Origin: Candidatus Collierbacteria bacterium
GTDB lineage: Bacteria > Patescibacteriota > Microgenomatia > UBA1400 > JACPES01
Length of the DNA stretch: 64,000 nucleotides
NCBI GenBank assembly: GCA_016219325.1
Contig: JACRNH010000026.1
Span: 3,098 to 67,097 of the forward strand
Direction: 5' to 3'
Each line of letters starts with the position of its first letter. Within the stretch, counting starts at the first letter, position 1. This document shows positions 19,906-55,996 of the stretch, one piece after another. Below the pieces are notes generated by a model. It was not told the origin of the DNA. It ran no database searches and saw nothing but the letters and a program-made list of their open reading frames with translations. A program made the position numbers and the translations under genes.

Positions 19906-19963
19906 ATTTTTGATACTTCAATTATTTTCCTGCAGAGCAGGATCAGTCTTTGCCTGAAAATAA

Positions 19964-21849: not shown

Positions 21850-21875
21850 ATTTTGAGAATTGTATACTAAATTAT

Positions 21876-40088: not shown

Positions 40089-41218
40089 AATTGTTGAACA
40101 AAAATATTCCGTTGCTATTCCTGGCAGTATTATTAATTGCAAACTTAGAGGCTTTATTGCTTCTCCGTCATAAATCACCGTTTATATCAGATAGTTTCTT
40201 TTACCGGCATATGGTTTATCGGTATCTTGGGGATGATTACGATCAAGCCAGAAACAGAGCGATTGAGACTTTGCCTGCTAAATTAGATCAAATATCCTCA
40301 AATTTTTTCTACAATGATTCCAACTACCGCAAGGCGCTTAAACATTTTACCAAGCGCCCGTTCTACCCATGGTTAGTCGGCATAATCTACCGTTTTACAA
40401 ACCAAGAATATTTATCTTTTTTACTCCCGCAGCTATTGGCTTTAAATATTGTTTTGATTGCTTCAATTTATCTTTTCCGCCAAGGCCTAACTGATGCCGG
40501 AGCAATAATTTCGACAGCCCTGCTTGCCGCCTTTCCGCCCTTGATTGAGTGGACAACCTATTTTACCGGAGACGTTATCGGGGCCGGTTTTTGGCTGTTG
40601 CAAATCGCTTTACTTTTCAAACTGATCCAAAAACCAAAAGCAGAAAATACCAAAATTATTTTTATGGCGGTTTTAATACTGTCTTTATTAAACCGGGAAC
40701 AGAGCTTGTTGATGAACCTGATTGTTCCGATTCTTTATTTGAGTATAAAAAACCGACCGGCTAAGAGAATATTGGCAACCATATGGAAGCTTACTGTTTT
40801 AATTTCAATGATTTATCTGTCTGTTTTAAAGTTGACCAGACAATACACCATTCTCGACACCATTTCATATTTGAGGAACAATTATGGCTTATCTGAAAAT
40901 GTCTACACATTCAGCCAAAACATTCCGTTCATCCTGCAATCAATTATCTATGCCCATCAATCTTTTTTAATTGATTTGACCCATCACCGCTGGTGGCTGG
41001 CAATCGCCCTAACCGGAATTATCGGCGCGGTTTTCACTATGAAGCGGCCAAAAATAATCGATGCCGTCATGTTGGCGTCGGCCGTCGGCTCATACGCGGC
41101 TATTTTCATTTACCCGTCTTTTAGTTACAAATACTTTTTCCCTGTAGTAATTTCTTTAATCTATTTCTCAATAAAATTAATCAGATATAATCATAGTTAC
41201 CGTGATATTCCATATTAA
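39986..41218 (+). CDS. Polytopic membrane protein, hypothetical; real start likely internal (~40085, LNKNIPLLFLAVLL)
   Basis: About 9-11 TM helices; ORF-track start overlaps DUF5989 gene. Confidence 0.35.
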   Translation: MVARTADYNSTNFRIIAGINRGLCGGPVYLYFVLKLLNKNIPLLFLAVLLIANLEALLLLRHKSPFISDSFFYRHMVYRYLGDDYDQARNRAIETLPAKLDQISSNFFYNDSNYRKALKHFTKRPFYPWLVGIIYRFTNQEYLSFLLPQLLALNIVLIASIYLFRQGLTDAGAIISTALLAAFPPLIEWTTYFTGDVIGAGFWLLQIALLFKLIQKPKAENTKIIFMAVLILSLLNREQSLLMNLIVPILYLSIKNRPAKRILATIWKLTVLISMIYLSVLKLTRQYTILDTISYLRNNYGLSENVYTFSQNIPFILQSIIYAHQSFLIDLTHHRWWLAIALTGIIGAVFTMKRPKIIDAVMLASAVGSYAAIFIYPSFSYKYFFPVVISLIYFSIKLIRYNHSYRDIPY

Positions 41219-41984
41219 AGAACTCTACAAATACCGTGAATTGTTGTGGGTTCTGACCGCCAGAGAACTTAAAGTCCGTTACAAACAAACCTCCTTAGGA
41301 GTTCTTTGGGCGATTATTCAACCTCTTTCACTAATGCTTATTTTTACGATGGTTTTCAGTTACTTTACTAAAATAAATTCCGAGGGACTCCCTTACCCGA
41401 TTTTCAGCTACACCGCTCTTTTGCCGTGGACTTTCTTCCAAACCGCGGTTCAATTTGGCTCAATGAGCGTCGTCAATAACTCCGGCCTAATCACCAAAGT
41501 CTGGTTCCCGCGGGAAATTCTACCCCTGTCTTCCCTGCTGGCCGCTTTAGTTGATTTTCTAATCGCCGGAACATTGCTTATCGGTCTAATGATATTTTAC
41601 GGCACCGCTATTACCCCAAACATCTTCTGGCTATTGCTGCTTATCCCGCTCCAAATGGTGATTACCGCCGGAATTAATCTTCTTCTGGCCGCCTTGGTGG
41701 TGATGTTTCGCGATTTAAAGTTCGTGATTCCCTTGGGACTCCAAATATTATTTTATGCCACTCCGATAATTTACTCCATCAACATTATCCCCGACCGATT
41801 TGTTAAACTGGTTCTGGCCAATCCGCTCACCGGTTTGGTCGACAGTTACCGTAAAATTCTTCTCCAGGGTCAACCGCCAAATTTCTATTACCTTTCTTCC
41901 AGTTTGGTTACCGGACTGGCGCTATTGATATCGGGATACTGGTTTTACAAGCGGGTAGATAAAAGATTTGCGGATATCATTTGA
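41202..41984 (+). CDS. ABC-2 type transporter permease (Wzm/TagG/KpsM-like polysaccharide exporter)
   Basis: ELLWVLTARELKVRYKQTSLGVLWAIIQPL N-terminal signature, 6 TM. Confidence 0.7.
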   Translation: MIFHIKELYKYRELLWVLTARELKVRYKQTSLGVLWAIIQPLSLMLIFTMVFSYFTKINSEGLPYPIFSYTALLPWTFFQTAVQFGSMSVVNNSGLITKVWFPREILPLSSLLAALVDFLIAGTLLIGLMIFYGTAITPNIFWLLLLIPLQMVITAGINLLLAALVVMFRDLKFVIPLGLQILFYATPIIYSINIIPDRFVKLVLANPLTGLVDSYRKILLQGQPPNFYYLSSSLVTGLALLISGYWFYKRVDKRFADII

Positions 41985-42032
41985 AGAGAGGGCCAAAATT
42001 AAGGACGCGGTAAATTTACTAAAAATCCCGAT

Positions 42033-42296
42033 TTAATTAATTTGTTTTCCTTCTAATAAGAAAGGGACGTTTTTCTCGAACCCGAACATTTTTTTAAATT
42101 TAGAGACTATATTAAGTTCTTCGGGGAATACTCCGATAATCTCCAAGCCGATCGGCACGCCTTGTTTATCTTTAACAATTACGTCATTAGAGTAAGTAGA
42201 ATTCACTTCTTCAGACACAAAAGCTCTGGCAGGACTACCCCACCAAATATTCATGGTATTTCCAACCGGATCGAGTAATACTTTCATTTTGGCCAT
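42033..42296 (-). CDS. DUF2283-family putative antitoxin
   Basis: MKVLLDPVGNTMNIW...DKQGVPIGLEII resembles DUF2283 (YDPEADALYI...DGRLVGIEIL). Confidence 0.45.
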   Translation of the reverse strand: MAKMKVLLDPVGNTMNIWWGSPARAFVSEEVNSTYSNDVIVKDKQGVPIGLEIIGVFPEELNIVSKFKKMFGFEKNVPFLLEGKQIN

Positions 42297-42613
42297 AGTT
42301 TTTCTCCTTTATCAATCACTTTTTTCGTCTGATAAACCGTCACCACAAATCCACTACCGTTCAGATGCTTTGCCACTACTATGAGTATATCACCGTCCAT
42401 TTGTTTGCGGTAAAGCGCGATTGTCTCATCTTTCACGCTTCTAAATGCGCTATCTGGTTTTTGCAGGGCCTGCCCGACTTCCCGAACACCATATTTTAAT
42501 TCTTGATGTTTTTCCGTTTTTATTTTTTCCCAATATTGTTTTGACGTTCGGATTCTTTTTCCGAATACATCGATAACTTCAAAGAGCTGATCGGCAGAAA
42601 CAATATTTTTCAT
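42284..42613 (-). CDS. DUF4258-family putative toxin
   Basis: H..L..G.REV..AL and C-terminal ...VVTVYQ (DUF4258-like VITVY end); overlaps downstream DUF2283 gene by 13 nt. Confidence 0.45.
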   Translation of the reverse strand: MKNIVSADQLFEVIDVFGKRIRTSKQYWEKIKTEKHQELKYGVREVGQALQKPDSAFRSVKDETIALYRKQMDGDILIVVAKHLNGSGFVVTVYQTKKVIDKGEKLWPK

Positions 42614-42672
42614 TAATCAGGATTATCCTTTCGCATATGATTCTACAATAAATGTAATGTTACAATGTTTCA

Positions 42673-43455
42673 ATGGTTAATTCTGTTATAAATTTCCACC
42701 ACGTCTCCAAACAATATGTCAAGCAGCGCTTACGCTATGGAATGTTATCTGAGACCATTGGCCGATTGTTCATCAACGACCATTCCGGCAAAGCCGGATC
42801 CCGCTCTGCGGGACAACAATCAACCATTAACCATAATGTTATTAAGGCCCTCGACAACGTTAGTTTTGACATTAATAAAGGTGAGGCTTTAGGAATAATC
42901 GGCCCCAACGGCGCCGGCAAAAGCACAATTTTAAAATTAATTTCCAAAGTTACCGTTCCCGACTCCGGCCAAGTCACCGCAAACGGAAAGATCGGGGCTC
43001 TGATTGAGTTAGGCGCCGGCCTGCATCCGGAATTAACCGGCCGGGAAAATATATTTTTATACGGAGCGATTTTAGGGATGAAAAAACAGGAAGTCGAAGC
43101 CAAATTTGAAGACATCGTCGCCTTTGCCGAAATTAAAGAATTATTGGATATGCCCATCAAACGCTATTCATCCGGGATGTACGCCCGCTTGGGGTTTGCC
43201 GTCGCCGTCCAAATGGAACCGGATATCTTGCTGATTGACGAAGTCCTGGCCGTCGGCGACGAAAGTTTTCAAAAAAAGTGCTTTGCCAAAATGAAGCAAG
43301 CAAAAAACAAAGGCATCACTGTCGTTTTTGTCTCCCATAACCTCGATTGGATCAAGTTAATCTGCGACCGAGTTCTCTTAATCCAGCACGGCAAAATTAT
43401 TGCCGACCGCTCGCCCTGGCGCGCGATTTCCGCCTATCACTCCATATCATCATGA
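42673..43455 (+). CDS. ABC transporter ATP-binding protein (Wzt/TagH-like, no C-terminal carbohydrate-binding domain); carries P4 in-frame element
   Basis: Walker A GPNGAGKST, signature YSSGM, Walker B LLIDEVLAVGD, H-loop SHN. Confidence 0.8.
   Translation: MVNSVINFHHVSKQYVKQRLRYGMLSETIGRLFINDHSGKAGSRSAGQQSTINHNVIKALDNVSFDINKGEALGIIGPNGAGKSTILKLISKVTVPDSGQVTANGKIGALIELGAGLHPELTGRENIFLYGAILGMKKQEVEAKFEDIVAFAEIKELLDMPIKRYSSGMYARLGFAVAVQMEPDILLIDEVLAVGDESFQKKCFAKMKQAKNKGITVVFVSHNLDWIKLICDRVLLIQHGKIIADRSPWRAISAYHSISS
42786..42817. repeat. P4 palindrome CGGCAAAGCCGGATCCCGCTCTGCGGGACAAC in ABC ATPase gene (KAGSRSAG)
   Basis: Read directly. Confidence 0.7.
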
Positions 43456-43703
43456 CTCAAAAACGCCGAATTCTATTTCTGGTAATCTTAATTATTATCG
43501 CCGCCGCCATTAACGCGATCAAAACTCAAAACAGAGTATCTCAAAAAGAATTTACGACCCAAGTTCTCGACCAATACATTAAATATTACTGCCCCAACGC
43601 CGGAACTTGCTCCCGGGAAAAAGCTCTGTCAAGTCTCCGCAGTGACTGGCCGCAACTGTACTCACGGGGCTTCTCTATTCTTGAAAACAATGAAACGCAA
43701 TAA
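43453..43703 (+). CDS. Small hypothetical membrane-anchored protein (about 83 aa)
   Basis: ATG at ~43453 (MTQKRRILFLVILIIIAAAINAIK...), in-frame continuation of an upstream spurious ORF. Confidence 0.3.
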
Positions 43704-44868
43704 ATGGCTCTACCTTTGGCTGTTACTAGTCGGAATTATCTACCTGGCGCCTTGGTGGAGAAGCGTATATTTCCTCTGGGATGACATAGAGTTTTTGATT
43801 CTCTTAAAGTTCCATCTATGGAATACCCTACTTTTGTCTCATGAATATCAATTTTTCCCTATATTCCAGATTTTCTATTGGATAGAAATTCAATTATTCG
43901 GAGTCAACCCGTCTCTTTTTTTTCTCGTTTCAGTCGTCCTTCACATTGTCAATATTTTTCTTGCCTCAAGCCTTACTTTCCGACTAACGAAGAGTGAATT
44001 TTCCTCTGTGCTTGCAGCAATCCTGGTTAGCTTTAACAAATCCTTTTTCGAAATCATCTTTTGGCCTACTCTCCAATCTAATCTTCTCTTAACCACATCT
44101 TCTTTATTTGCTGTTTATCTCTTTTTAAAATCAAAAAATCAATACAATAACTACGATGCATTAAAATTATTTTTGATTATTCTAATCGGTAATTTCCTGT
44201 TTGGTTTCGGTATTGCGGTAGGTTTTATCTTCACTTTTACCGCTCTGATATTTTTTAATCCGGGAAAAGGAAGAAGCGTTCTTTCTTTCCTGACGGCGGC
44301 GGCAAGTATCATTGGAGTTATCGCTATCATATCTTTTTCAACCGCCGAACTTCGCCAAGAAGGAAAAATGCCTGAGTTGTCTTTCCGGCAACTTTCGCAA
44401 ATTGTTTATTTCACCGCCGTCGGCCCGTCGGAAGGAATCATTAGCCGTTTCTTTCTCCCCGGATTCGTCCCAAACATTTACAGCCTTCCCAACATATTGA
44501 TCATGATTCTAATTCCGGGAATACTCGTTATCTTTACCGGATTTCTGGTATATCGATTCTTCAAAAAAAAGTCATGGAAAAAATCATTATATCCGCTTTT
44601 TATGTTTTACTCTCTCACTGTTGCGCCATACGCCATCGCTGCGCTGGCCAGATCGGCAAATGGAGCGTATAAAGCGCTGGCCGACCGCTATGTCTACTAT
44701 CCGTTGTTCTTTTTTGTCTTGGCGCTTATTTACAGCTTATTTCTGTTTCAAAAACTACTCGGGATAAAACAAAGGCTATTTCACATATTGACGGTAGGAA
44801 TGACGATTATTATCGTTGTCGGGCATCTCGTTGCCATGAATTTTAAAGTTAATCTTCTCTTCTTATAA
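43642..44868 (+). CDS. Polytopic membrane protein, hypothetical (real start likely MKRNKWLYLW ~43693)
   Basis: About 10 TM, no soluble domain. Confidence 0.35.
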   Translation: MTGRNCTHGASLFLKTMKRNKWLYLWLLLVGIIYLAPWWRSVYFLWDDIEFLILLKFHLWNTLLLSHEYQFFPIFQIFYWIEIQLFGVNPSLFFLVSVVLHIVNIFLASSLTFRLTKSEFSSVLAAILVSFNKSFFEIIFWPTLQSNLLLTTSSLFAVYLFLKSKNQYNNYDALKLFLIILIGNFLFGFGIAVGFIFTFTALIFFNPGKGRSVLSFLTAAASIIGVIAIISFSTAELRQEGKMPELSFRQLSQIVYFTAVGPSEGIISRFFLPGFVPNIYSLPNILIMILIPGILVIFTGFLVYRFFKKKSWKKSLYPLFMFYSLTVAPYAIAALARSANGAYKALADRYVYYPLFFFVLALIYSLFLFQKLLGIKQRLFHILTVGMTIIIVVGHLVAMNFKVNLLFL

Positions 44869-44873
44869 CTTGT

Positions 44874-46490
44874 ATGAAAACCAATAAATATACAACTCAC
44901 AGAATGCTTTCTGGAATGTGGACGACATTAACCGTTGTGTTTCTAACAATATTCACTATCGGTATGCTAAAAAACCTCGGAAACATTGCATTCTGGCAAG
45001 ATGAAGGCGAAACGATGCAGTATGCCAGGACTATCCTCAAATACGGATATCCTTCTGTCTTTGACGGCAGAAGTTTCATTCTTCTCGATACCGGAGATAC
45101 ACAGTACGATCCAAAATATTACTTCAAGTATTGGACACCTTATCTACAATCGTACGTGGCTGCCATTCCCCTGTTATTTAATCACGGCATCGCCGACACT
45201 TTCTTGATTCGTCTGCCGTTTGCCCTCTTTGCCATCGTCGGCGCCTGGGGGTCCTGGATGGTTTTTTACCGTCTCGGTTATCCAAAGTTTGCTCTATTTC
45301 TCTACAGTACTCTTCTGGCCACCTCTGTCCAGCTCTACCTCTACTGGCGCCAAGCCCGCCACTACGCCCTCCAATTTCCATTGGCGCTGGGACTTGTTTA
45401 TTCTTATCTAAATTTAGGCAAAAGAAAATGGAACATACTATTTATAGTGTCCGGTTTTTTGTTTTATCACGCCTACTACCCCGGCTTCATCGCGTTTTAC
45501 GTTGCGATAACCATCCATGCCATAATCAGAAAATACCTTGACGTTAAATATTCCCTGAAACCTCTTTTCTCCTGTACGTTTATGCTTTTTGTTCTCAATT
45601 TCCCGGCTTACTTTCTTCTCCATCACTATGCCCAACGCCCCAGTAGCAATCCTTTATTCGCCTTTACTGATTACTTACTCGAATTAAACTATTTCGCCTA
45701 CTTTAAAATCACGGCGCTCTCGTTAATAATTGTCATTTTATATTTCCTCAAGTCCGAAAAACTAACCAACTTCAAACAAATATTGAACAGCTTATTATGT
45801 TCTCATAAATATTCACTCATTCTCTTCTTGCTTATTGTAGGTATCGTTCCTTCCATATCATCTTTTGGAGTTCAAAACCCACGTTACATTAGTATAGTTT
45901 TTCCTTTCGCCTTTCTTCTTGCCGGGACATCTTGGAAAAAACTCGTTGAACTTATTTCCATTAAACTTTCAATTTCTAATGTCGGCGGGAAGATAATCGG
46001 CCTCATAATTTTTTTCCTCTTGGTCAATATTTCCCATCCAGGATTTCCGTCACAGATAAAACAATTTTATGGCGAACTCAATAATGTTTATATCGGTCCG
46101 GTTACCGGCATCGTAAATACCATAACCGGTGTCGAAAAACCGCAACAACGAATTAACGCCGCGTCTTCTCTTCGCCCCGATCTTCTCATCGCCACTAATT
46201 TCGAAAACGCCGCCCTCTACGGTTACATGAACAATCAATTATTAAGCTATTTCGGACCCGCAGACAAATACAAATACGGCATCCGCCTCCCCGACTGGGT
46301 GATTATCAGAAAAGATTGGGGACAGGAAGAATACTTGCGGTCTTTTCTGGAAAAAGGCAATTACGAAAAAATCAAAACAGACTATTGCGATCTGCCATAC
46401 GAAAACGTCTATCTCGTCAGAACCCACAATTTCAAAACTGTCATCGATTGTCCCGACTCTAAACTAACTCTTTACAAACTAATTAAATGA
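44874..46490 (+). CDS. GT-C fold membrane glycosyltransferase (ArnT/PMT-like)
   Basis: FWQDEGETMQYAR first-loop motif, polytopic, 538 aa. Confidence 0.55.
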   Translation: MKTNKYTTHRMLSGMWTTLTVVFLTIFTIGMLKNLGNIAFWQDEGETMQYARTILKYGYPSVFDGRSFILLDTGDTQYDPKYYFKYWTPYLQSYVAAIPLLFNHGIADTFLIRLPFALFAIVGAWGSWMVFYRLGYPKFALFLYSTLLATSVQLYLYWRQARHYALQFPLALGLVYSYLNLGKRKWNILFIVSGFLFYHAYYPGFIAFYVAITIHAIIRKYLDVKYSLKPLFSCTFMLFVLNFPAYFLLHHYAQRPSSNPLFAFTDYLLELNYFAYFKITALSLIIVILYFLKSEKLTNFKQILNSLLCSHKYSLILFLLIVGIVPSISSFGVQNPRYISIVFPFAFLLAGTSWKKLVELISIKLSISNVGGKIIGLIIFFLLVNISHPGFPSQIKQFYGELNNVYIGPVTGIVNTITGVEKPQQRINAASSLRPDLLIATNFENAALYGYMNNQLLSYFGPADKYKYGIRLPDWVIIRKDWGQEEYLRSFLEKGNYEKIKTDYCDLPYENVYLVRTHNFKTVIDCPDSKLTLYKLIK

Positions 46491-47396
46491 CAGTTGCCGC
46501 TTCATTTCCAAAATCGCTTCGGAAAATGTCCGCATCGAAACATCAAGCCCCGCTTTAAGTTTTTCATTTGATAATCCGGACCAACGTGGATACGGACGAA
46601 AAGAAGTAGCCAAATATACCGATAAATTTATCGGTATAATCAATTTTGAGTTAAATCCAAAAACTCTGACTATCTCTGTAGCCGCCTGAAACGGCGATAA
46701 TGTACTTGATCCTACAACATGAAAAATTCCTGAGGGTTTGCGTTGAATAATGGTCTCGAGCGCTCCGGATATATCGTCAATATAAGTCAGGGTAAATAAC
46801 GTATCAGAGAACATTTTAAGAGTTTCTCCTTTAGAAAATTTATCCAATAACTTCCGGACGAAATCTTTTTTGTTTTCAAATTTCGTCCGAAATGGGTAGG
46901 CAATTCTAATAATCGTAAATTTGCATCCGGAATCAATTACCGCTTGCTCCCCCAACCATTTTGTCCGACCATACCAATTAATCGGATTCGGTTTATCTGT
47001 TTCTGTATAGAGTACGTTCTCCTTCCCGTCAAACACCGCGTCTGTAGAAACGTAAATTAAGTGTTTGCCTGTTTTAGCGCAAACACTGGCGATATTTCTT
47101 GTCCCCTCCACATTTATCTGATAGCATAATGCCTTTTTATCGTTTTTTTGTTTTTCCGCCTCATCTAAATCCGTAAAAGCTGCAAAGTGAATCACTACTT
47201 CTGAATCGTCTTTTATAATCGCGTTTTCTAAACTTTTTTTATCGGAAATGTTTACCCCGTTAGATCTGCTTAAATTTGTCCAATCAAAAACATCTGCGGT
47301 CAATTCCTTGACTCTTGACCCTACTAGTCCGGTTAACCCCGTTCCAATCACTTTAGTTTTATCGTTCATCATTTGGTCATTGGAACATTTGAACAT
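46479..47396 (-). CDS. dTDP-4-dehydrorhamnose reductase-like (RmlD family SDR)
   Basis: VIGTGLTGLVGSRV, YGRTK catalytic motif, about 290 aa core; ORF-track N-terminus reads through upstream leader repeat. Confidence 0.6.
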   Translation of the reverse strand: MFKCSNDQMMNDKTKVIGTGLTGLVGSRVKELTADVFDWTNLSRSNGVNISDKKSLENAIIKDDSEVVIHFAAFTDLDEAEKQKNDKKALCYQINVEGTRNIASVCAKTGKHLIYVSTDAVFDGKENVLYTETDKPNPINWYGRTKWLGEQAVIDSGCKFTIIRIAYPFRTKFENKKDFVRKLLDKFSKGETLKMFSDTLFTLTYIDDISGALETIIQRKPSGIFHVVGSSTLSPFQAATEIVRVFGFNSKLIIPINLSVYLATSFRPYPRWSGLSNEKLKAGLDVSMRTFSEAILEMKRQLSFN

Positions 47397-47435
47397 TGGA
47401 ACATATGCTTTAATGTTTAAATGCTCCCATGATCT
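47372..47435. promoter_or_regulatory. IG-C leader repeat copy upstream of minus-strand RmlD-like gene
   Basis: TCATTGGAACATTTGAACATTGGAACATATGCTTTAATGTTTAAATGCTCCCATGA. Confidence 0.5.
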
Positions 47436-47441
47436 CTTGTT

Positions 47442-50306
47442 CTAATGTTTTCTCGCCACCGTTAATAAAATCGGCGAGGCTTTCAACCAGTATAAAACAA
47501 TTGAAAGAGGGAAAGTGAAAATTAAAAGAGAGAGTAAAACAGCCGAAACCAAAATCGCCGAAACCGGCCCATTATTGGTTAAAGCCACAAAATTAAGCCG
47601 CGGCGAAATTAGGTACATAATACTTTGAGCCAGTCCGACCGGAATATATTCCGGCGCGTACAATTGCCGCTGTTCAATCACCTCAAAACCGACCTCTCCC
47701 AACAGATGCGCCAATCCTTTAGGGGTAAAATGAGTCAAGTGCCGGGGAGTATCCAGATGAAACCATTTTGACCCGAATATTAGTCTTTCGGAATTTGCGT
47801 AATTCGGACACTCAATAATTAATATTCCTTTTTTCTTCAACGACTTAAAAATCTTTGCCAAAGCCAGAGCTGGATTAGAAACGTGTTCCAGGCTCTCCCA
47901 AAATGTCGCTATGTCAAAAGTTGCCGAACTTATTTTTACTTTCTCTATTCCTCCGATCAATATATTATTATTCTTAGCGCCGGAAAACGAAGTTTCAATC
48001 CCGGTATAGTTGAATTCCGGCAAAAAGGATCCGGTTGAACCGTCCCCACAGCCAATATCCAATAATTTCCCGGATTTTTTATACTGGCGAATGATGTTAA
48101 GCCGCCTAAACTGAAGTAAATTATAAATAAGTGATTTTACCGGAAAATAATAAGTCTTTGGATAGTATTTAGATAAATCTTTAGGCGCGGGAACTGTAAA
48201 TCCATTTTGGCAAATGGTACAAAAAAACACGGAAAATTGTTCCCCGCTGACGCCATCTTTTACTACGTTTTCAAATCTGGTTAATTTTTGACCGCATTTC
48301 GGACAAGGCGCCGGCTGAATCAACAAGAAAGGCCCCCGCTGGAATCTAAAGAACTTCGCCGCCAAATACTGCCACAATGTCTTAAATGTTCCCAGAGCGT
48401 AAATCGTACTCCGGAACAAGTTAGCCGTATGCATCGCCGGATGGTATCGGCAGGAAATCGGGACTTCGGCGACTTTGAAATCCCAATAAACCGCTTGGGT
48501 GATAATGTCAAAACTAAATAAATAATCGTCGGAATTTTGCCGCCAAGGAACGCTCTCCAATAATTTTCTGGTGTACATCCTGAAACCCGAATGAAATTCC
48601 GACAGCTCCAACCCCAAAACTAACTCGTCAATAAACGACATCGCCCGATTGGCGATAAACTTTACCAACGGCATTTTATTTTTCAACGCTGTTTTTGGAA
48701 AAATAAATCTGGAACCCAGCGCGAAATCATATCCTTCGTTTACCTTTTCCACGAATTTCGGCAGAGCCGACGGATCGTATTGGTCATCCGGATGATATTC
48801 AATAATTACGTCCGCTCCGGCTTCCAAAGCTTTAGTCAAACATACTTTAAGATTTCCCCCGTACCCCAAATTCAATTCGTTTCTAAAAACTGTAATCGGC
48901 AGTTTTTTGGCGACCTGGTAAGTATCGTCCCGGCTGCTGTCATCTACCAAAATCACTTCGTCAACATATTTTTTAGGAATCTTCCGGTATGAATCGACTA
49001 AAGTTTTAGTAGCATTGTAAGCCGGCATTACCAATATTACTTTTTCCGTTTTCCTGCGTGGCACCAGTCTGGAAACCACTTTGACATCCGGCACCGGAAT
49101 AATAAACTTTCCTCCGTTTTCCAGATATTTGAATTGCTTTTCCATTATTTCCTCGGCAAAATTCCATGCCAAAATCACTGCAAAATCCGGTTGAACGTTA
49201 TTTATTGCTTCTTCCGGGGCTATCGGAATGTGGCTTCCCGGCGCCAACAGTCCCTGTTTATACGGAGTGGAATCAACGATAAAGTCCATCACCTCACCGT
49301 CAATTCCGCAATAATTCAATAAAATATTTCCCCTGGCCGACGCTCCGTATCCCACCACCGATTTTCTTTTTGACTTTATCTCCAGTATTTTTTTTCTCAA
49401 CCTTTCCCCCAACCGCGCCACCTCTTCCCCAAATTTCAGGTACGTTTCCGGCCGATTTATCCCGAAACTCTCTTCTAACTTTAATAAATCGCCAATAGCC
49501 GCCGTTCTTATATAATCGGCCCTATCTTTAGCGATAGTAATTCTCAATGCCCCGCCGTCAATCGCCGTCCGCCGGATATCAACTATAAATAATCCCTTTT
49601 TATCCAACAGGTATTTGATGGCCGCCGCCGAAAAATATGACAAGTGCTCATGATAAATTGTGTCAAAATATTTCTTCTCCACTAAATCCAAAAGATAGGG
49701 AAATTCACACACGAATAGGCCGTTTTTGGACAACAGCGTTTTTACTCCGGAAAATAACCCGTGCAAATCCTCAATGTGGGCGACTACGTTGGTGGCGGTA
49801 ATATAATCGGCATTTCCGTATTTTTTAACAATTTTGGCTGCGGTAGCAGGCGAAAAATACGCTGCCAAAGTTTCAACCCCTTTCAGCTCGGCCACTTTTG
49901 CCAAATTTTCCGCCGGATCAACCCCCAAAGTTCTGACTCCTAATTTCTTAAATTCAACCAGCAAACTCCCATCGTTGCTGCCGATATCCACCGCTAATTT
50001 GTTCTTTTTCACCGGCAGTTTCCGGATCATTTCCTGCGCTATCTGGAAAAAATTATCCAATCTGGTTTTTGACGCCGACGGGATATAAACATAATTCCTA
50101 AACATCAGCTCCGGATCAACGATATCCAGCAGTTGAACCAAAGTGCATCTGGGGCAAAATCCGACTCTAAGCGGAAATTTTTTTTCGGTTTTTTTCTCTT
50201 GTTTGGACTTCAAAAACGCGTTTGGCAGAGGCATTTCACCCAAATCAAGAAATTCCACCAGCTCCTTTGAGCCGCAAATCCGGCACCGCTCCACCATCTT
50301 CGTCAT
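47442..50306 (-). CDS. Three-domain fusion: NDP-hexose C-methyltransferase (TylCIII-like, Zn-ribbon + Methyltransf_13/14) - GT2 glycosyltransferase - class I SAM methyltransferase with Zn ribbon and C-terminal TM
   Basis: N-term CRICGSK...CPRC then MTase; middle VILVMPAYNATKTL...ILVDDSSRDDT...GSRF (DPM1-like GT2); C-term CPKCGQ...CTICQ then LLDIGCGDGS motif I; 954 aa. Confidence 0.6.
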   Translation of the reverse strand: MTKMVERCRICGSKELVEFLDLGEMPLPNAFLKSKQEKKTEKKFPLRVGFCPRCTLVQLLDIVDPELMFRNYVYIPSASKTRLDNFFQIAQEMIRKLPVKKNKLAVDIGSNDGSLLVEFKKLGVRTLGVDPAENLAKVAELKGVETLAAYFSPATAAKIVKKYGNADYITATNVVAHIEDLHGLFSGVKTLLSKNGLFVCEFPYLLDLVEKKYFDTIYHEHLSYFSAAAIKYLLDKKGLFIVDIRRTAIDGGALRITIAKDRADYIRTAAIGDLLKLEESFGINRPETYLKFGEEVARLGERLRKKILEIKSKRKSVVGYGASARGNILLNYCGIDGEVMDFIVDSTPYKQGLLAPGSHIPIAPEEAINNVQPDFAVILAWNFAEEIMEKQFKYLENGGKFIIPVPDVKVVSRLVPRRKTEKVILVMPAYNATKTLVDSYRKIPKKYVDEVILVDDSSRDDTYQVAKKLPITVFRNELNLGYGGNLKVCLTKALEAGADVIIEYHPDDQYDPSALPKFVEKVNEGYDFALGSRFIFPKTALKNKMPLVKFIANRAMSFIDELVLGLELSEFHSGFRMYTRKLLESVPWRQNSDDYLFSFDIITQAVYWDFKVAEVPISCRYHPAMHTANLFRSTIYALGTFKTLWQYLAAKFFRFQRGPFLLIQPAPCPKCGQKLTRFENVVKDGVSGEQFSVFFCTICQNGFTVPAPKDLSKYYPKTYYFPVKSLIYNLLQFRRLNIIRQYKKSGKLLDIGCGDGSTGSFLPEFNYTGIETSFSGAKNNNILIGGIEKVKISSATFDIATFWESLEHVSNPALALAKIFKSLKKKGILIIECPNYANSERLIFGSKWFHLDTPRHLTHFTPKGLAHLLGEVGFEVIEQRQLYAPEYIPVGLAQSIMYLISPRLNFVALTNNGPVSAILVSAVLLSLLIFTFPLSIVLYWLKASPILLTVARKH

Positions 50307-50396
50307 AGCTAGTGATTATACATACTCAAAATAAATGTTGTACAATCGGAACTTATGACTATTCTCTTAACCGGCGGCACCGGTTTCATAAACCTT

Positions 50397-51269
50397 TCAG
50401 GGTATCATTTTCAGACCATTGATGATAATCTCAACAAAATGTTCGCCAAAAGTTTTTATGGTATTTTCCGATTCGATGAACGGAACCAAATCCCGTTGAA
50501 CATCTCGCGGGTTAATTTTTTTTACCTTTTCCGCCACCCGGTCGATTACATCTTTTTTCTCACTGATTTTCAGCGCCGCTAATATTCTTTCCCACCGGGG
50601 AACCAGTTGTCCCTGTCTTTTTTGCGCCAGTTCAATCAGCCAAACTAAATCAAACAAGTCACGCCCCTTAAATGATATTTCTTGGTCCCGGCCGCGGAAG
50701 AAATCCCGTCCCAAAAAAGCAATAATTTTATTGGCAAACATTGTCGGCAAATCGTAAGCATTGACAAAAAATGTAAACTCCCGCGTAAAAATAGGGTGAA
50801 CCTCCGTTTGATAAAAACCGATATCTTCCTTGGCAAAATCGCACCGCACAAATAGTTGTTGCCGGTCGGCGGCGCTTTTAACCATTCCGACTTCGTTTAG
50901 GATTCGTGGAAATTTTATAAAAACAGTTCGGCTGTTATTTGCTAATTTTGTTTCCACGCTTTTATACTGCAAGTTTCCGGCGAAATAATTTTTAATTTTG
51001 GCGGAAAATTTTTCGATTTGGAATTTTCCCACGAAATCAAAATCTATGTCCTCTGATAACCGCGGCAAACCATATACTTTTCGCAGGCAAGTCCCGCCGG
51101 TGAAAATCAGCCGTTTAAAGTCGGAATCGCTATAAACAAAATGCAGCAGGTAATCCTGAATCGCCTCTTTCACCCGGCTAAAAATAAAAGGTTTATTCCG
51201 GCCGCGCTCCGCTTCGATCGTGTTTTTAATCACATCGACAATCATAGCTTCCTTTCTTTTTTTAACCAA
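50397..51269 (-). CDS. abiEii: AbiEii/AbiGii-family nucleotidyltransferase toxin (type IV TA/abortive infection)
   Basis: RLIFTGGTCLRKVYGLPRLSEDIDFDF (GGTxL...R.SxDIDF) hallmark. Confidence 0.65.
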   Translation of the reverse strand: MVKKRKEAMIVDVIKNTIEAERGRNKPFIFSRVKEAIQDYLLHFVYSDSDFKRLIFTGGTCLRKVYGLPRLSEDIDFDFVGKFQIEKFSAKIKNYFAGNLQYKSVETKLANNSRTVFIKFPRILNEVGMVKSAADRQQLFVRCDFAKEDIGFYQTEVHPIFTREFTFFVNAYDLPTMFANKIIAFLGRDFFRGRDQEISFKGRDLFDLVWLIELAQKRQGQLVPRWERILAALKISEKKDVIDRVAEKVKKINPRDVQRDLVPFIESENTIKTFGEHFVEIIINGLKMIP

Positions 51270-51916
51270 GCCGCTATTTTTTCCATCTTCGGCGAACCGG
51301 ACTTGGCCGCCAACTTGGAAAAATCGGCCTTTGCCTGTTTGCCCAAAGCGCCCCAGTTAATCCTGCCTTCTTTTAACACATATTTCCGCGTGCCTTCGTC
51401 GGAGACAAACTTTTTCAGGTATAGGAAATCAAACAAGGCCTTGTACGGATAAGCCATCTTTATTATCAAACCGGTATCTCCAAAAACCAATAGCTGATAT
51501 CCGCCGTAAAGTTCTCTCTTTATGTTCCGGTAAATAAATGTTGCTTTTGGGGAAGTATAGACGCGGGGAGACTTCAGCGTTACCGACGTCAAGCTAAAAA
51601 CAGACTCGGGAATAATATTGTATTTAGACAAAACATACTCCAAGGATACGTAAGAAGGCAAACGCAACACGTTGGCAAGATACATCCAGTATAATTCCGA
51701 TTGCTCCGGGTTGCCGGTCATCGTGTCTTGGTAGTGCGAAGACACATAAAATCCTTTCTTCAAAGGGGTTATCAGTTTCTCTTTCGTCAACTTTTTAATC
51801 CAATAATTCAAATCTTCGCCCTCTTTCCCCAAAGCCAAACCCAGGTTCTGCTTGGTAAAATATGGCAGTTGTTTAACCGTGGTAATTAAACGGATAAGTT
51901 GCATGTCATTCCACAA
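51242..51916 (-). CDS. abiEi: AbiEi-family antitoxin/transcriptional regulator
   Basis: About 220 aa, immediately upstream and overlapping AbiEii by 28 nt, N-terminal wHTH-like segment. Confidence 0.5.
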   Translation of the reverse strand: MWNDMQLIRLITTVKQLPYFTKQNLGLALGKEGEDLNYWIKKLTKEKLITPLKKGFYVSSHYQDTMTGNPEQSELYWMYLANVLRLPSYVSLEYVLSKYNIIPESVFSLTSVTLKSPRVYTSPKATFIYRNIKRELYGGYQLLVFGDTGLIIKMAYPYKALFDFLYLKKFVSDEGTRKYVLKEGRINWGALGKQAKADFSKLAAKSGSPKMEKIAAWLKKERKL

Positions 51917-52007: not shown

Positions 52008-52994
52008 GTGAATAACCTTAATCGTTGCACTATTCTTCTCACCGGCGGAACCGGCTCATTCGGCAAAGCGTTTATTTCATTCTTGTTGTCTCAAGAAAAA
52101 TTTAGCGGCACAATCAGGGTTTTCTCCCGAGGGGAATACGAACAATATAAATTACAACAGCAGTATCTTAGTGATCCCAGGATTCGTTTCTTAATCGGAG
52201 ATGTCCGGGATAAAAATCGTCTCTATCGGGCAACGCAAGGAACCGATGTTATCATTCACGCCGCCGCTCTCAAGCACGTTACCATTGCTGAATATAACCC
52301 ATTCGAAGTGGTAAAAACCAATATTATCGGCTCTCAAAATATAGTTGAAGTGGCTATTGATACCAAAGTTAAAAAAGTAATCCTAATTAGTTCCGATAAA
52401 GCAGTTTATCCCATCAGCCTTTATGGAGCTACTAAATTAGCTGCAGAAAGAATATTTATTCAAGGAAATGTATACGCCGGCACCCAAAAAACCATTTTCG
52501 CGGTGGCCCGGTTTGGAAATTTCATGGGCAGCCGGGGAAGCGTTCTTCCATTATTCTCAAAACAAAGTCATTCGGGAATTTTATCGCTTACCCATCCCGA
52601 TATGACTCGTTTTTGGATAACACCTTCTCAAGCAGCCGCCTTCGTTTTATTGTCATTATCAAAAATGAAGGGCGGAGAAATATTTATTCCAAAATCTCCA
52701 ACTATCAAAATTATAGATCTCGCCAAAGCCATCGCTCCTAAAGCAAAGCATAAATTCACCGGAATTCGCCAAGGTGAAAAACTACATGAGGAGCTTATGA
52801 CAGAACAAGAGCTGGAGTCAAGCGAAACGTTTAACAATTACTATGTTATTCATCCAACAACTGAAGGAAAACTTACCCAACCAACAGAAAAAAAAAGAGA
52901 GAAACGGTTGCTATATCGCAGTGACAGTAATCAATGGCAACTTGATCTGAAAGGAATCAAGAACCTTCTAAAGCTTTCCATATCTCCCGGCTAA
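52008..52994 (+). CDS. UDP-N-acetylglucosamine 4,6-dehydratase (PseB/LegB/CapD short form)
   Basis: ILLTGGTGSFGKAFI, DVRD, VIIHAAALKHV, TNIIG. Confidence 0.7.
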   Translation: MNNLNRCTILLTGGTGSFGKAFISFLLSQEKFSGTIRVFSRGEYEQYKLQQQYLSDPRIRFLIGDVRDKNRLYRATQGTDVIIHAAALKHVTIAEYNPFEVVKTNIIGSQNIVEVAIDTKVKKVILISSDKAVYPISLYGATKLAAERIFIQGNVYAGTQKTIFAVARFGNFMGSRGSVLPLFSKQSHSGILSLTHPDMTRFWITPSQAAAFVLLSLSKMKGGEIFIPKSPTIKIIDLAKAIAPKAKHKFTGIRQGEKLHEELMTEQELESSETFNNYYVIHPTTEGKLTQPTEKKREKRLLYRSDSNQWQLDLKGIKNLLKLSISPG

Positions 52995-55967: not shown

Positions 55968-55996
55968 TTTTACAACCGGCATGCTAGAATAAAGCC

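Follow-up and report, generated by a model that had tools for sequence, protein, structure and literature searches.

The 64-kb window analysed here (the whole stretch of DNA, 64,000 nucleotides) contains a single open reading frame in which a sugar C-methyltransferase, a GT2 glycosyltransferase and a second methyltransferase appear in one polypeptide, raising the questions of whether such a fusion is real and what it would do. A preliminary description made from the sequence had proposed three modules, two Zn ribbons and an adjoining RmlD-like reductase, and domain searches bear out each of these calls. The coordinates it gave are exact, the minus strand having gone unstated. The gene and the one variable linker within it are as follows.

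47442..50306 (including the stop codon), minus strand: tri-domain fusion gene (C-methyltransferase / GT2 / methyltransferase), a single open reading frame
49044..49073, minus strand: linker, residues 412-421, variable and K/R-rich (conservation, pLDDT)

The gene reads from ATG to stop over 954 amino acids with zero internal stops, and the protein is identical to NCBI MBI5357161.1 from 'Candidatus Collierbacteria bacterium', a member of the candidate phyla radiation. The close relatives L006 and L012 carry separate C-methyltransferase and GT2-methyltransferase genes in different frames, whose stop and start codons overlap exactly at the position of the linker, and one wrong base at such a junction could look like a fusion. 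That a frameshift or missed stop in this metagenome-assembled genome has joined three neighbouring genes is nevertheless a practically negligible prospect. An independent Logan assembly of run SRR12113407 matches window positions 46442-51306 exactly over 4865 bp, and the tri-domain protein is kept in 23 further 90%-identity clusters (58-87% identity) from four data sources, NCBI, JGI, ENA and Logan. The independent assembly and the related genomes, which bear on two of the checks named in the preliminary description, give no sign of a fusion created by sequencing error. The linker is the least conserved part of the protein (pLDDT <50 at residues 415-419), yet it stays in frame and constant in length, and the junction between the GT2 and the second Zn ribbon, where a linker is absent, is among the best conserved stretches. 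Comparison with an 87%-identical orthologue gives 0 indels and 284 synonymous against 126 nonsynonymous codon differences, with synonymous changes in excess in every domain and the linker alone reversed (3 synonymous, 7 nonsynonymous), a codon pattern that indicates purifying selection on all domains, on either side of the linker. The fusion is real and conserved, and is not an assembly artefact.

The N-terminal part of the protein is the following.

49074..50306, minus strand: module 1, NDP-sugar C-methyltransferase, residues 1-411 (Pfam, MtmC match, Foldseek)

Prediction of module 1 as a sugar C-methyltransferase of the TylC3/TcaB9/MtmC type is strongly supported, in agreement with the TylCIII-like assignment made earlier. 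It consists of an N-terminal four-cysteine Zn domain (Methyltransf_13, residues 8-69, E 3.4e-24), a SAM-binding Rossmann domain with the class I methyltransferase core (Methyltransf_12/25, residues 106-198) and a C-terminal Methyltransf_14 domain (residues 249-406, E 1.7e-52), all by Pfam. MtmC (4rv9, E 1.6e-98), KijD1 and TcaB9 match it over its full length, with E from 1.6e-98 to 6e-78, and the structural match reaches a TM-score of 0.95 with an rmsd of 1.7-2.0 Å (Foldseek). The Zn cysteines C8, C11, C51 and C54 are conserved, being invariant in the 23 fused homologues save for four sequences gapped at C8/C11. Residues Y72, H177, Y218, E220 and H221, also invariant in these homologues, are equivalent to Y76, H181, Y222, E224 and H225 of TcaB9, which are the positions mutated in TcaB9 studies. 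MtmC, TcaB9 and KijD1 belong to antibiotic pathways of actinomycetes, in which they work as soluble, stand-alone enzymes on dTDP-2,6-dideoxy or 3-amino-2,3,6-trideoxy-4-keto sugars. As no 2,3-dehydratase is present in the 64-kb window, the substrate of module 1 must differ from any tested one, and is probably a 2-hydroxy or 2-acetamido 4-keto-6-deoxyhexose.

The central module is a glycosyltransferase.

48327..49043, minus strand: module 2, GT2 with a GT-A fold, polyprenyl-phosphate glycosyltransferase type, residues 422-660 (PF00535, structure matches)

Glycos_transf_2 (PF00535) covers residues 425-584 (E 8e-22), and the earlier comparison with DPM1 and GtrB is sustained by both sequence and structure. 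The best PDB sequence match is PfDPMS (5mlz, 1.2e-13), followed by GtrB and ArnC, with other GT2 structures aligning to just the first ~60 residues, and the Foldseek matches are ArnC at the top, DPMS, GtrB and GpgS. In NCBIfam the best matches, every one of them far short of its equivalog cut-off (e.g., 67.7 vs 375 bits), are Dol-P hexose transferase, PpgS, AglJ and ArnC. The segment 505-HPDDQY-510 aligns with 89-DADLQH-94 of DPMS, so that the metal ligands D91 and Q93 correspond to D507 and Q509; R117, which binds the acceptor phosphate, corresponds to R533 in a GSR motif. K549 and N553 align with DPMS as well, and all five residues are invariant or nearly so. The positions of D89 and H94, which contact the sugar in DPMS, are occupied by H505 and Y510. 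Helices 547-564 and 630-653 of the predicted structure (AF2) are interface-like, and residues 617-629 form a flexible loop. Against a lipid-phosphate role speak, besides the low NCBIfam scores, the His in place of the first Asp of the DXD motif (HPDDQ), the lack of canonical transmembrane helices directly behind the GT domain, and the equally good structural match to GpgS, an enzyme outside the lipid-phosphate group.

The GpgS structures among the top matches, and the derivation of all characterised module 1 relatives from antibiotic deoxysugar pathways, could suggest that the GT2 acts on a soluble or non-polyprenyl phosphorylated acceptor, or on a metabolite aglycone, in a natural-product-like rather than an envelope pathway. 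GpgS is however a retaining GT81 enzyme, whose common ground with module 2 is the general GT-A fold only. Nearly all genes of the 64-kb island concern envelope glycans, PKS and NRPS genes being absent, and the hydrophobic anchor of the fusion protein and its specific linkage to a GT-C family likewise make a natural-product role highly improbable.

The remainder of the protein comprises three features.

48177..48326, minus strand: second Zn ribbon, residues 661-710, with C668, C671, C696 and C699 (conserved Cys)
47652..48176, minus strand: core of module 3, class I SAM methyltransferase, residues 711-885 (PF13489)
47445..47651, minus strand: membrane anchor, residues 886-954 (hydropathy, AF2 model)

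The four cysteines of the second Zn ribbon are invariant in 31 homologues, and three short strands are predicted at residues 676-705 (AF2). Methyltransf_23 (PF13489) spans residues 743-879 (E 4e-37, Pfam) with an intact motif I, LLDIGCGDGS, in which GCGDGS occupies residues 752-757; the earlier call of a Zn ribbon with a class I methyltransferase is in keeping with this domain and the invariant cysteines. Other invariant residues of the module are E804, E807, H808, W848, F849, H850, D852, R855, H856 and H859, and its nearest solved structure is 3cc8, a putative methyltransferase of B. cereus (profile E 4.9e-16). The anchor is modelled at a pLDDT of ~90 (AF2) as helices 888-911 and 914-940, a conserved central Pro933, an invariant S944-P945 and a terminal beta-strand at 946-953, the second helix being hydrophobic (mean Eisenberg hydrophobicity 0.74). 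T-x-P-L-S and SPILLTVA motifs are conserved in the fused and bi-domain homologues. The terminal transmembrane segment proposed before holds as a hydrophobic anchor, but a helical hairpin or re-entrant anchor is the more likely topology, since the chain comes back to the methyltransferase domain with a conserved strand at its C-terminus. Geometry between domains is uncertain in the whole-protein AF2 model (pTM 0.57).

The genes around the fusion gene indicate the setting in which it would function.

46479..47396, minus strand: RmlD-like NDP-4-keto-sugar reductase (PF04321, TIGR01214), 46 nt downstream of the fusion gene
44874..46490, plus strand: GT-C fold glycosyltransferase, ArnT/PMT_2-like, 538 aa (AF2 and Foldseek), convergent with the RmlD-like gene
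43642..44868, plus strand: conserved polytopic membrane protein with ~8-10 hydrophobic segments, likely start at 43690 giving 392 aa
43452..43703, plus strand: small conserved protein of 83 aa with one N-terminal transmembrane segment and a CP..G.C motif, encoded between the genes for the ABC ATPase and for the 392-aa membrane protein
41202..43455, plus strand: ABC-2 type exporter, permease at 41202-41984 and ATPase at 42673-43455 (PF01061, PF00005)
52008..52994, plus strand: PseB-like UDP-GlcNAc 4,6-dehydratase (TIGR03589), divergent from the fusion gene

The RmlD-like identity of the adjoining gene, already suggested, rests on PF04321 (3e-61), with TIGR01214 at 194 bits, below its cut-off of 224. 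The gene occupies the same position in loci L001-L004 (55-72% identity), and in the neighbourhood comparison distant split loci have no adjoining RmlD-like gene. The GT-C protein has no Pfam or NCBIfam match and shows remote matches to PF13231 proteins (E 2e-15); its model (pLDDT 88.5, pTM 0.88, AF2) has GT-C enzymes as all of its best 35 Foldseek matches, ArnT first, and it carries a W-x-DE-x-ET loop motif in which D43 and E44 are invariant. The same family adjoins the GT2-methyltransferase gene in distant lineages (L019, L020, L024, L025, L026 and L047; E 1e-42 to 1e-49), and other polytopic DE-motif proteins adjoin the module in L009, L018 and L036. The 392-aa membrane protein, with an invariant WDD after TM1, adjoins the GT-C gene in L001-L004; it has no family match, hhalign gives 11% probability against the GT-C family, and it is a candidate GT-C-like protein or flippase. 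No Pfam match was found for the 83-aa protein, which shares 57-58% identity with the small ORFs that L002 and L003 carry at this position. The PseB-like protein scores 399.9 bits with TIGR03589 (cut-off 407.75) and is a candidate supplier of the 4-keto-6-deoxy substrate. In L001-L004, L006/L012, L009 and L010 a PseB-like gene lies upstream of the module, either directly or within ~2.6 kb. No GtrA-type flippase gene is adjacent to the fusion gene, and the sole small DMT/EamA-like 4-TM protein is encoded 17 kb away.

The modules are also found in other arrangements. A genome scan shows the C-methyltransferase gene followed by the GT2-methyltransferase gene in L008, L010 and L012, the reverse order in six loci, the order C-methyltransferase, methyltransferase, GT2 in L016, and GT2 followed by C-methyltransferase in Bdellovibrionota. 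Independent fusions in other orders occur as GT2-CMT, CMT-GT2 and MT-GT2, and in most lineages the module is served by stand-alone soluble C-methyltransferases. The three modules are thus recurrently linked, together with a GT-C partner.

Extracytoplasmic glycosylation by a three-component system usually relies on a polyprenyl-phosphate glycosyltransferase that works together with a flippase and a GT-C enzyme. The fusion protein is, on balance, probably a membrane-tethered enzyme with three active sites that forms the cytoplasmic half of a system of this type. In the proposed pathway a 4,6-dehydratase would first produce an NDP-4-keto-6-deoxyhexose, for which UDP-4-keto-6-deoxy-HexNAc is the leading candidate in view of the conserved PseB-like neighbour. 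Module 1 would then use SAM to methylate the carbon beside the keto group, which to our knowledge is C3 in all characterised relatives, and the adjoining RmlD-like enzyme would reduce C4. At the membrane surface, module 2 would take the branched sugar off its nucleotide and attach it to polyprenyl phosphate, and module 3 would add a second methyl, probably an O-methyl, on the lipid-linked sugar or just before transfer. The polyprenyl-phosphate sugar would finally be flipped, and the GT-C protein would pass it to a cell-surface glycan or protein. The sugar and its nucleotide, the methylation positions, the step order, the flippase and the final acceptor are all parts of this proposal that we infer. 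Individual steps have precedents, in that ArnC loads a pre-modified sugar on Und-P (PMC12690121), UndP-Ribf is the substrate of an SDR epimerase in three-component systems (PMC11127046), and AglP methylates a lipid-linked glycan (PMC2952790). The GT2 relatives and the conserved GT-C partner lend indirect support to the earlier proposal that a methylated, possibly C-branched, deoxysugar is placed on polyprenyl phosphate. Direct channelling was too strong a claim, as reduction by a separate 4-ketoreductase has to come in between.

The ABC-2 exporter genes, separated by two small minus-strand ORFs, are within the conserved block in L003/L004 (67-69% identity), and such an exporter would also fit a cytoplasmic polymer pathway. 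Known methyltransferase-GT fusions cap S-layer and O-antigen glycans, as in trifunctional WsaE (PMC2943079) and WbdD (PMC11127046), and a similar chain-capping or terminating role in an ABC-transporter-dependent polysaccharide pathway is conceivable here, if unlikely. In that unlikely case the GT2 would provide a polyprenyl-PP-linked glycan, still growing in the cytoplasm, with a terminal C-methyl sugar, whose O-methylation by the C-terminal methyltransferase would halt elongation before export by the neighbouring ABC-2 transporter. However, sequence, profile and structure comparisons all place the GT2 nearest to enzymes that transfer a monosaccharide to a lipid phosphate rather than to polymerising or extending GT2s, and the phosphate-binding Arg and DxQ metal motif of DPMS are kept. 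The model contains no coiled-coil ruler, and the ABC ATPase, at 260 aa and without an extra C-terminal domain, has no room for a carbohydrate-binding module reading a terminal cap (concept in PMC11127046). The GT-C family moreover adjoins the GT2-methyltransferase gene even where no ABC transporter is detected within 6 kb.

A different step order, in which the GT2 first loads a 4-keto-6-deoxy sugar on polyprenyl phosphate and all tailoring, by the C-methyltransferase, the RmlD-like reductase and also the second methyltransferase, takes place afterwards on the lipid-linked sugar at the membrane, appears quite unlikely. It would be analogous to the DprE1/E2 conversion of decaprenyl-P-ribose to arabinose or to the action of ArnD, and lipid-level tailoring via a keto intermediate or an SDR has precedent (PMC11127046). 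Fusion to a membrane-anchored GT2 puts a normally soluble C-methyltransferase at the membrane, such fusions arose repeatedly and in both orders, and the DPMS sugar contacts are replaced (H505, Y510). Against this, module 1 retains the full three-domain fold of dTDP-sugar enzymes, including Methyltransf_14, and stand-alone soluble enzymes serve the module in most lineages. The three-component reading with tailoring by module 1 at the nucleotide level is preferred.

The component enzymes are known, and their combination in one protein is undescribed in the literature searched; the preliminary description had likewise not recognised the architecture. Module 1 shares with the 3-C-methyltransferases of the MtmC/TcaB9/KijD1/TylC3 type (4rv9, 3ndi, 5t64; ~37-45% identity) the three-domain fold, the four-cysteine Zn site, the SAM motif and the Tyr/His/Tyr-x-Glu-His active-site residues, and differs from them in being joined to a membrane enzyme in an envelope-glycan island. 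A TylC3-family enzyme is likewise assigned to an envelope glycan rather than an antibiotic in the predicted GDP-virenose pathway of Coxiella burnetii LPS, where it is proposed to make a 6-deoxy-3-C-methyl hexose (PMC3539893). That enzyme stands alone, with presumed cytoplasmic incorporation from the nucleotide sugar and no fusion, lipid-phosphate GT2 or GT-C partner described. Module 2 resembles PfDPMS/DPM1, GtrB, ArnC and PpgS in its GT-A fold, the Asp-x-Gln of DADLQ and the GSR arginine, and the whole protein resembles them in the amphipathic helices that follow the catalytic domain, in the pair of hydrophobic helices at the C-terminus and in having a GT-C partner. Unlike these enzymes, it has His for the first Asp of DXD and Tyr for the next His, an entire Zn-ribbon methyltransferase that separates the second interface helix from the membrane helices, and a C-methyltransferase fused at the N-terminus of the GT2.

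The Arn pathway for lipid A aminoarabinose (ArnA/B, ArnC, ArnD, ArnE/F, ArnT) follows the same logic of nucleotide-level tailoring, GT2 loading on undecaprenyl phosphate, lipid-level tailoring, flipping and GT-C transfer, and ArnC and ArnT are the top structural matches of module 2 and of the neighbouring GT-C protein, respectively. The Arn pathway uses formylation and deformylation in place of the C- and probably O-methylation proposed here, the enzymes of the present system are combined in one polypeptide, and no ArnE/F-like flippase gene adjoins the fusion gene. Systems of the Gtr, Citrobacter youngae ORF12-15 and CsbB/YfhO types similarly have a polyprenyl-P-sugar synthase gene beside a GT-C gene, and three-component systems are also alike in using auxiliary cytoplasmic enzymes to diversify the lipid-linked sugar and in their link to ABC-transporter-dependent glycans (PMC11127046). 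The auxiliary enzymes described in them are epimerases rather than methyltransferases (PMC11127046), and the literature searched holds no description of C-branched sugars delivered by this route. WsaE of Geobacillus stearothermophilus, with a methyltransferase and two rhamnosyltransferase domains, is also a trifunctional methyltransferase/GT2-type fusion, and its surface-glycan gene cluster likewise includes an ABC transporter (PMC2943079). Unlike the present protein it is soluble, and it extends a polymer and caps it with 2-O-methyl-rhamnose, using one methyltransferase and two glycosyltransferases with no C-methyltransferase, whereas the fusion described here combines two methyltransferases with one GT2 of the lipid-phosphate type.

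The 954-residue protein is encoded at window positions 47442-50306, coordinates that the preliminary description gave exactly; they belong to the minus strand, where translation yields a single open reading frame from ATG to stop, the plus-strand translation being riddled with stops. All five of the elements named in that description are recovered by a Pfam domain search of the translation, as follows:

aa 8-69, Zn-binding Methyltransf_13 (PF08421), E 3.4e-24
aa 106-198, class I methyltransferase core
aa 249-406, Methyltransf_14 (PF08484), E 1.7e-52
aa 425-584, Glycos_transf_2, E 8e-22
aa 743-879, Methyltransf_23 (PF13489), E 4e-37

NCBI has the identical protein as MBI5357161.1, in a metagenome-assembled genome (MAG) of a 'Candidatus Collierbacteria bacterium', with no annotation beyond 'methyltransferase domain-containing protein'. 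With respect to the joining of separate genes by sequencing error, an independent Logan assembly of SRR12113407 agrees with window 46442-51306 at every one of 4865 bp, spanning the entire fusion gene and both of its neighbours. The search of relatives that had been suggested likewise returned the same three-module protein in 23 further 90%-identity clusters (929-974 aa, 58-87% identity) from NCBI, JGI, ENA and Logan. In the alignment of these fused homologues, the junction between the C-methyltransferase and the GT2 (aa 407-421) is a variable, K/R-rich and nearly indel-free linker, and the junction between the GT2 and the second methyltransferase has no linker at all and is among the best conserved stretches. 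No indels separate the fusion gene from an 87%-identical orthologue; of the codon differences, 284 are synonymous and 126 nonsynonymous, with synonymous differences in excess in every module and the ratio reversed in the linker only. On five lines of evidence the fusion is real, and misassembly is rejected on the exact independent assembly, the 23 fused clusters, the alignment at the two junctions and the synonymous excess. There are no tRNA or Rfam elements in the window, and thus no RNA feature is involved.

The first module (aa 1-411) aligns end to end with MtmC (the D-mycarose 3-C-methyltransferase; E 1.6e-98), KijD1 and TcaB9. In the AlphaFold model of the fusion (mean pLDDT 83.9), it superposes on 4rv9, 5t67 and 3ndi with a TM score of 0.95 and an rmsd of 1.7-2.0 Å over about 405-414 columns (Foldseek), and both Pfam and Foldseek find the three-domain fold with its Methyltransf_14 C-terminal domain. 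The Zn cysteines C8, C11, C51 and C54 align with cysteines of TcaB9, KijD1 and MtmC and are conserved in the family. Residues Y72, H177, Y218, E220 and H221 correspond by alignment to TcaB9 Y76, H181, Y222, E224 and H225, a set of mutated positions taken from PDB mutant titles, and are invariant in the 23 fused homologues. Given the fold match and the retention of the Zn cysteines and the five TcaB9 positions, module 1 belongs, on alignment and model, to the NDP-sugar C-methyltransferase family and is intact. The characterized members act on 2,6-dideoxy or 3-amino-trideoxy dTDP-4-keto sugars (PDB titles). No 2,3-dehydratase is found in the window, so the substrate here is probably a 2-hydroxy or 2-acetamido 4-keto-6-deoxyhexose; a comparable substrate has been proposed in silico for Coxiella virenose (PMC3539893). 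In metagenomes, the commonest architecture of this C-methyltransferase is a fusion of about 765 aa with an NAD-dependent epimerase/dehydratase, and fusions with RmlC-like or cupin domains are likewise found (homologous proteins P0036-P0120, with source names that include Woesearchaeota, Nanoarchaeota, Magasanikbacteria and Udaeobacter). Because of these other fusions and their varied sources, the synthesis of C-branched sugars may be widespread beyond actinomycetes.

Module 2 (aa 422-660) ranks highest in NCBIfam against the Dol-P hexose transferase, PpgS, AglJ and ArnC families, all far under their cut-offs (at best 67.7 bits where 375 are required, and for ArnC 26.2 where 529 are required), so that the scores point to the broader type only and not to membership of a named equivalog. 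The best match to a solved structure is the Dol-P-mannose synthase (DPMS) of Pyrococcus (1.2e-13), followed by GtrB and ArnC, with the single sequence and an eight-member profile in agreement, and polymer-forming GT2s align only to the first ~60 residues of the module. Foldseek places ArnC, DPMS, GpgS and GtrB at the top. The functional residues of PfDPMS (PMC5526996) map as follows:

metal ligands: PfDPMS D91 and Q93 (motif 89-DADLQH-94) to D507 and Q509 (motif 505-HPDDQY-510)
sugar contacts: PfDPMS D89 and H94 to H505 and Y510
acceptor-phosphate binding: PfDPMS R117 to R533 (GSR), R131 to K549, S135 to N553

Across 31 homologues, every one of these positions varies little or not at all: D507 is invariant, Q509 is kept in 30 of the 31, and the non-ligand D89 of PfDPMS is His here. 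The acceptor-phosphate positions R533, K549 and N553, as placed by profile alignment, are conservative replacements rather than identities at two of the three. In the AlphaFold model, helices 547-564 and 630-653 and the low-pLDDT loop 617-629 are placed as the DPMS interface helices and acceptor loop, with hydrophobic moments of 0.33-0.39 that are like those of other helices of the fusion. Transmembrane (TM) helices do not directly follow the glycosyltransferase domain, as a 225-residue Zn-ribbon methyltransferase lies between it and the hydrophobic helices of residues 888-940. A TM-less PfDPMS remained membrane-targeted (PMC5526996), and directly following TM helices may therefore be non-essential. 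From sequence and model comparison together, module 2 is concluded to be of the polyprenyl-phosphate glycosyltransferase type, outside all named equivalogs. A separate homologue of 805 aa (P0026) joins a tRNA-synthetase class Ib (PF00579) N-terminal region to the GT2 and second methyltransferase, with 74% identity to module 2 and 53% to module 3; its contig is 4 kb long, and it could be either a true fusion or an artefact of assembly or gene calling.

In module 3 (aa 661-954), a four-cysteine ribbon (C668, C671, C696, C699) leads into a class I methyltransferase that retains motif I in full; here D750, G752, G754 and E771, comprising the glycine-rich motif and the acidic residue that ends strand 2, are invariant in the family alignment. 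The motifs FWESLEH and WFHLD-PRH-xH are also invariant, and the nearest structure by both structure and profile comparison is 3cc8, an uncharacterised methyltransferase of B. cereus. The module is, on sequence and modelled fold, a class I SAM-dependent methyltransferase of the Methyltransf_23 family. The Rossmann domain is followed by helix 888-911 and the very hydrophobic helix 914-940 (mean hydrophobicity 0.74, with a conserved central Pro), then by an invariant S944-P945 and a terminal strand that the model predicts with confidence. As this strand requires a partner in the cytoplasmic domain, the anchor would form a helical hairpin or a re-entrant segment instead of crossing the membrane once. 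Elsewhere in the window, a stand-alone Zn-ribbon and Methyltransf_23 protein of 299 aa (62570-63469, minus strand) is 28% identical to module 3 and has no hydrophobic tail. It abuts a PMT_2 GT-C gene (61021-62568, minus strand), and comparable pairs occur in two of the relatives' loci (L001, L003); pairing of a methyltransferase with a GT-C may thus be a recurring feature of such genomes.

The three activities are also encoded separately. In two Gottesmanbacteria loci (L006, L012), a 414-aa C-methyltransferase gene overlaps a 539-aa GT2-methyltransferase gene by ATGA; the products share 53% and 57% identity with the corresponding parts of the fusion, whose linker coincides exactly with the boundary between the two genes. 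Further arrangements appear in a scan of species-representative genomes.

Arrangements of the C-methyltransferase (C-MT), the GT2 and the Zn-ribbon methyltransferase (MT), with locus handles
C-MT, GT2 and MT all fused: L009
C-MT, then GT2-MT: L008, L010, L012
GT2-MT, then C-MT: L019, L020, L024, L025, L026, L047
C-MT, MT and GT2 as three separate genes: L016
MT, then GT2: L039
GT2, then C-MT, or the reverse: Bdellovibrionota, Oligoflexia, 'Deltaproteobacteria' and Yanofskybacteria MAGs

Individual proteins add fusions of GT2-CMT (P0139), CMT-GT2 (P0110) and MT-GT2 (P0141, P0146). Among 1.84 billion representative proteins, the GT2-MT pair has near-full-length matches in ~10-15 50%-identity representatives, down to ~34% identity, and the full tri-domain protein forms one cluster. 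Independent fusions recur, in every order, which strongly indicates a single pathway for the three activities. For L008, L009, L011, L016, L020, L025 and L047, which hold close relatives of this module, several genome records are titled 'uncultured Gammaproteobacteria bacterium'; since the named relatives are all Patescibacteria, these titles are treated as unreliable and are probably taxonomic mislabels.

The genes around the fusion form a block that is conserved in four relatives' loci (L001-L004) in the order fusion, RmlD-like reductase (46479-47396 in the window, minus strand), 538-aa and 392-408-aa membrane proteins, small TM protein, ABC-2 exporter, SGNH/AlgX-like proteins and PMT_2 GT-C, the two membrane-protein genes being convergent with the fusion and RmlD-like genes. 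The 538-aa neighbour (44874-46490, plus strand) has no match in Pfam or NCBIfam, and a profile search against PDB sequences finds nothing; its GT-C fold is evident from structure comparison only, with a model (pLDDT 88.5, pTM 0.88) whose top 35 PDB structural matches are all GT-C, ArnT first. A distant match to PF13231 proteins (2e-15) is also found, and the family carries an invariant Asp-Glu within a W-x-DE-x-ET loop. By HMM (E 1e-42 to 1e-49), this GT-C family directly adjoins GT2-MT in six distant loci (L019, L020, L024, L025, L026 and L047); it lies near the module in L008 (HMM) and in L001-L004. Other polytopic proteins with a DE motif adjoin the module in L009, L018 and L036. The neighbour screens (tblastn, HMM) are insensitive, having missed a Pfam PMT_2 protein beside the module in L005, so that no match is not to be read as absence. 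A lipid-phosphate GT2 gene beside a GT-C is a hallmark of three-component extracytoplasmic glycosylation (PMC11127046).

No dedicated small flippase (GtrA or an ArnE/F-like DMT/SMR protein) is adjacent to the fusion or its GT-C. The candidates for this role are:

43690-44868, plus strand, 392-aa polytopic membrane protein with an invariant WDD after TM1
43452-43703, plus strand, 83-aa protein carrying one TM helix and a CP..G.C motif, no family match
conserved block, ABC-2 exporter
29937-30308, minus strand, 123-aa EamA/DMT-like protein with four TM helices, beside a PMT_2 GT-C and a hexapeptide acyltransferase

The 392-aa protein matches nothing in Pfam and reaches a probability of 11% against the GT-C family in hhalign; it is conserved with the block in L001-L004, as is the 83-aa protein, and each is a possible candidate for the missing flippase or for an accessory subunit. 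The EamA-like protein resembles subunits of ArnE/F-type polyprenyl-phosphate-sugar flippases in size and family.

The main rival reading assigns the fusion to an ABC-transporter pathway, as a capping enzyme like WsaE or WbdD (PMC2943079). It is disfavoured, as the GT2 is closest to lipid-phosphate transferases and the model contains no long coiled coil. The Wzt-like ATPase is also short (260 aa, ABC domain 60-191), leaving no room for a CBM, and the linkage to the GT-C persists in loci where the insensitive screens detect no ABC exporter. In the most far-reaching reading, the fusion would be the tightest version of a hitherto undescribed module of four genes, for a TylC3-type C-methyltransferase, a DPM1-like GT2, a membrane methyltransferase with a Zn ribbon and an ArnT-like GT-C from a new family. 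The product of the module would be a C-branched, twice-methylated 6-deoxy(amino)sugar, built on polyprenyl phosphate for addition outside the membrane; this reading is tentative, and we give it somewhat below an even chance. In the mechanism preferred here, a 4-keto sugar would be made by a 4,6-dehydratase, methylated by module 1 at the carbon adjacent to the keto group, reduced at C4 by the RmlD-like enzyme and loaded onto polyprenyl phosphate by module 2. Module 3 would then add a second methyl group at the membrane, and the product would be flipped and transferred to an acceptor by the GT-C. Within this scheme we infer the identity of the sugar and nucleotide, the positions of methylation, whether C-methylation comes before or after lipid loading, the flippase and the acceptor. 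Tailoring both before and after lipid loading has precedents, namely the Arn pathway (PMC12690121), an SDR epimerase that acts on UndP-Ribf (PMC11127046) and AglP, a methylating enzyme for a lipid-linked glycan (PMC2952790).

A PseB-like UDP-GlcNAc 4,6-dehydratase gene (52008-52994, plus strand) is divergent from the fusion, both here and in closer relatives. The two are direct neighbours in L001-L004 and are separated in the window by an insertion (50397-51916, minus strand) of AbiEii/AbiEi-like genes:

50397-51269, minus strand, AbiEii toxin gene (PF08843)
51242-51916, minus strand, overlapping upstream 224-aa open reading frame, possible AbiEi partner, no Pfam match

These look like a toxin-antitoxin insertion into the glycan island. 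Two small overlapping open reading frames of 87 and 109 aa without Pfam match (42033-42613, minus strand) lie between the ABC-2 permease and ATPase genes, which are adjacent in L003, and may be a second small insertion, possibly toxin-antitoxin-like. Nearly the entire window (1-64000) is one envelope-glycan island, with many GT4 and GT2 genes, five PMT_2 GT-Cs, one DUF2142 protein and the following:

322-1428, ManC-like guanylyltransferase
7103-8713, Wzy_C
27074-28303, Wzx-like protein
36786-38573, carbamoyltransferase
59128-61020, CDP-glycerol glycerophosphotransferase-like protein

Positions 52008-59131 hold a gene set for a nonulosonic acid of pseudaminic or legionaminic type (PseB-like, DegT/PseC-like, CMP-transferase, NeuB, hydrolysing 2-epimerase-like, second DegT-like and FemAB/GNAT-like), and the same genes are found again next to the module in L001, L003 and L006. 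Four large polytopic membrane proteins without confident family (928, 430, 638 and 496 aa; 17119-25275), the 638-aa protein having a weak PTPS_related match (E 2e-4), could represent additional GT-C or polymerase families that have gone unrecognised. GC skew is negative in all 2-kb bins (-0.01 to -0.29; cumulative -4.96), with genes on both strands, which places the whole window on one replichore arm. Such an island is a striking outlay for a small-genome CPR bacterium.

C-branched sugars are found mainly in actinomycete antibiotics and in the lipopolysaccharides of a few pathogens. The four-gene module occurs in candidate phyla radiation bacteria, with partial forms (GT2 and C-methyltransferase, plus a GT-C-like protein) in Bdellovibrionota and related MAGs. 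The fusion and its split relatives suggest C-branched surface sugars in uncultivated host-dependent Collierbacteria, Gottesmanbacteria and other Microgenomates, made by a route through lipid phosphate and a GT-C instead of nucleotide sugars. If the far-reaching reading of the four-gene module is true, no earlier route would be known that brings a C-branched sugar to a cell-surface glycan via a lipid-monophosphate donor, and module 3 would be the first methyltransferase to serve a polyprenyl-phosphate monosaccharide specifically. A natural single-chain fusion fixes which enzymes cooperate, predicts methyltransferase action at the membrane on a polyprenyl-phosphate monosaccharide and offers one expressible construct for unusual methylated lipid-linked sugars in glycoengineering. 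The predicted structure assigns a putative function to a Pfam-less GT-C family, and a marker set becomes available for finding such systems.

The literature search found no description of the tri-domain architecture, of a gene module of C-methyltransferase, GT2, Zn-ribbon methyltransferase and GT-C, or of a C-branched sugar carried by a polyprenyl-monophosphate donor, and literature on PF08484/PF08421 and on C-methyltransferase with polyprenyl held nothing relevant. The kind of each module is already known, as is the logic that leads from nucleotide tailoring through lipid-phosphate loading and further tailoring to transfer by a GT-C, and the finding is an extension of these known principles rather than a new kind of system.
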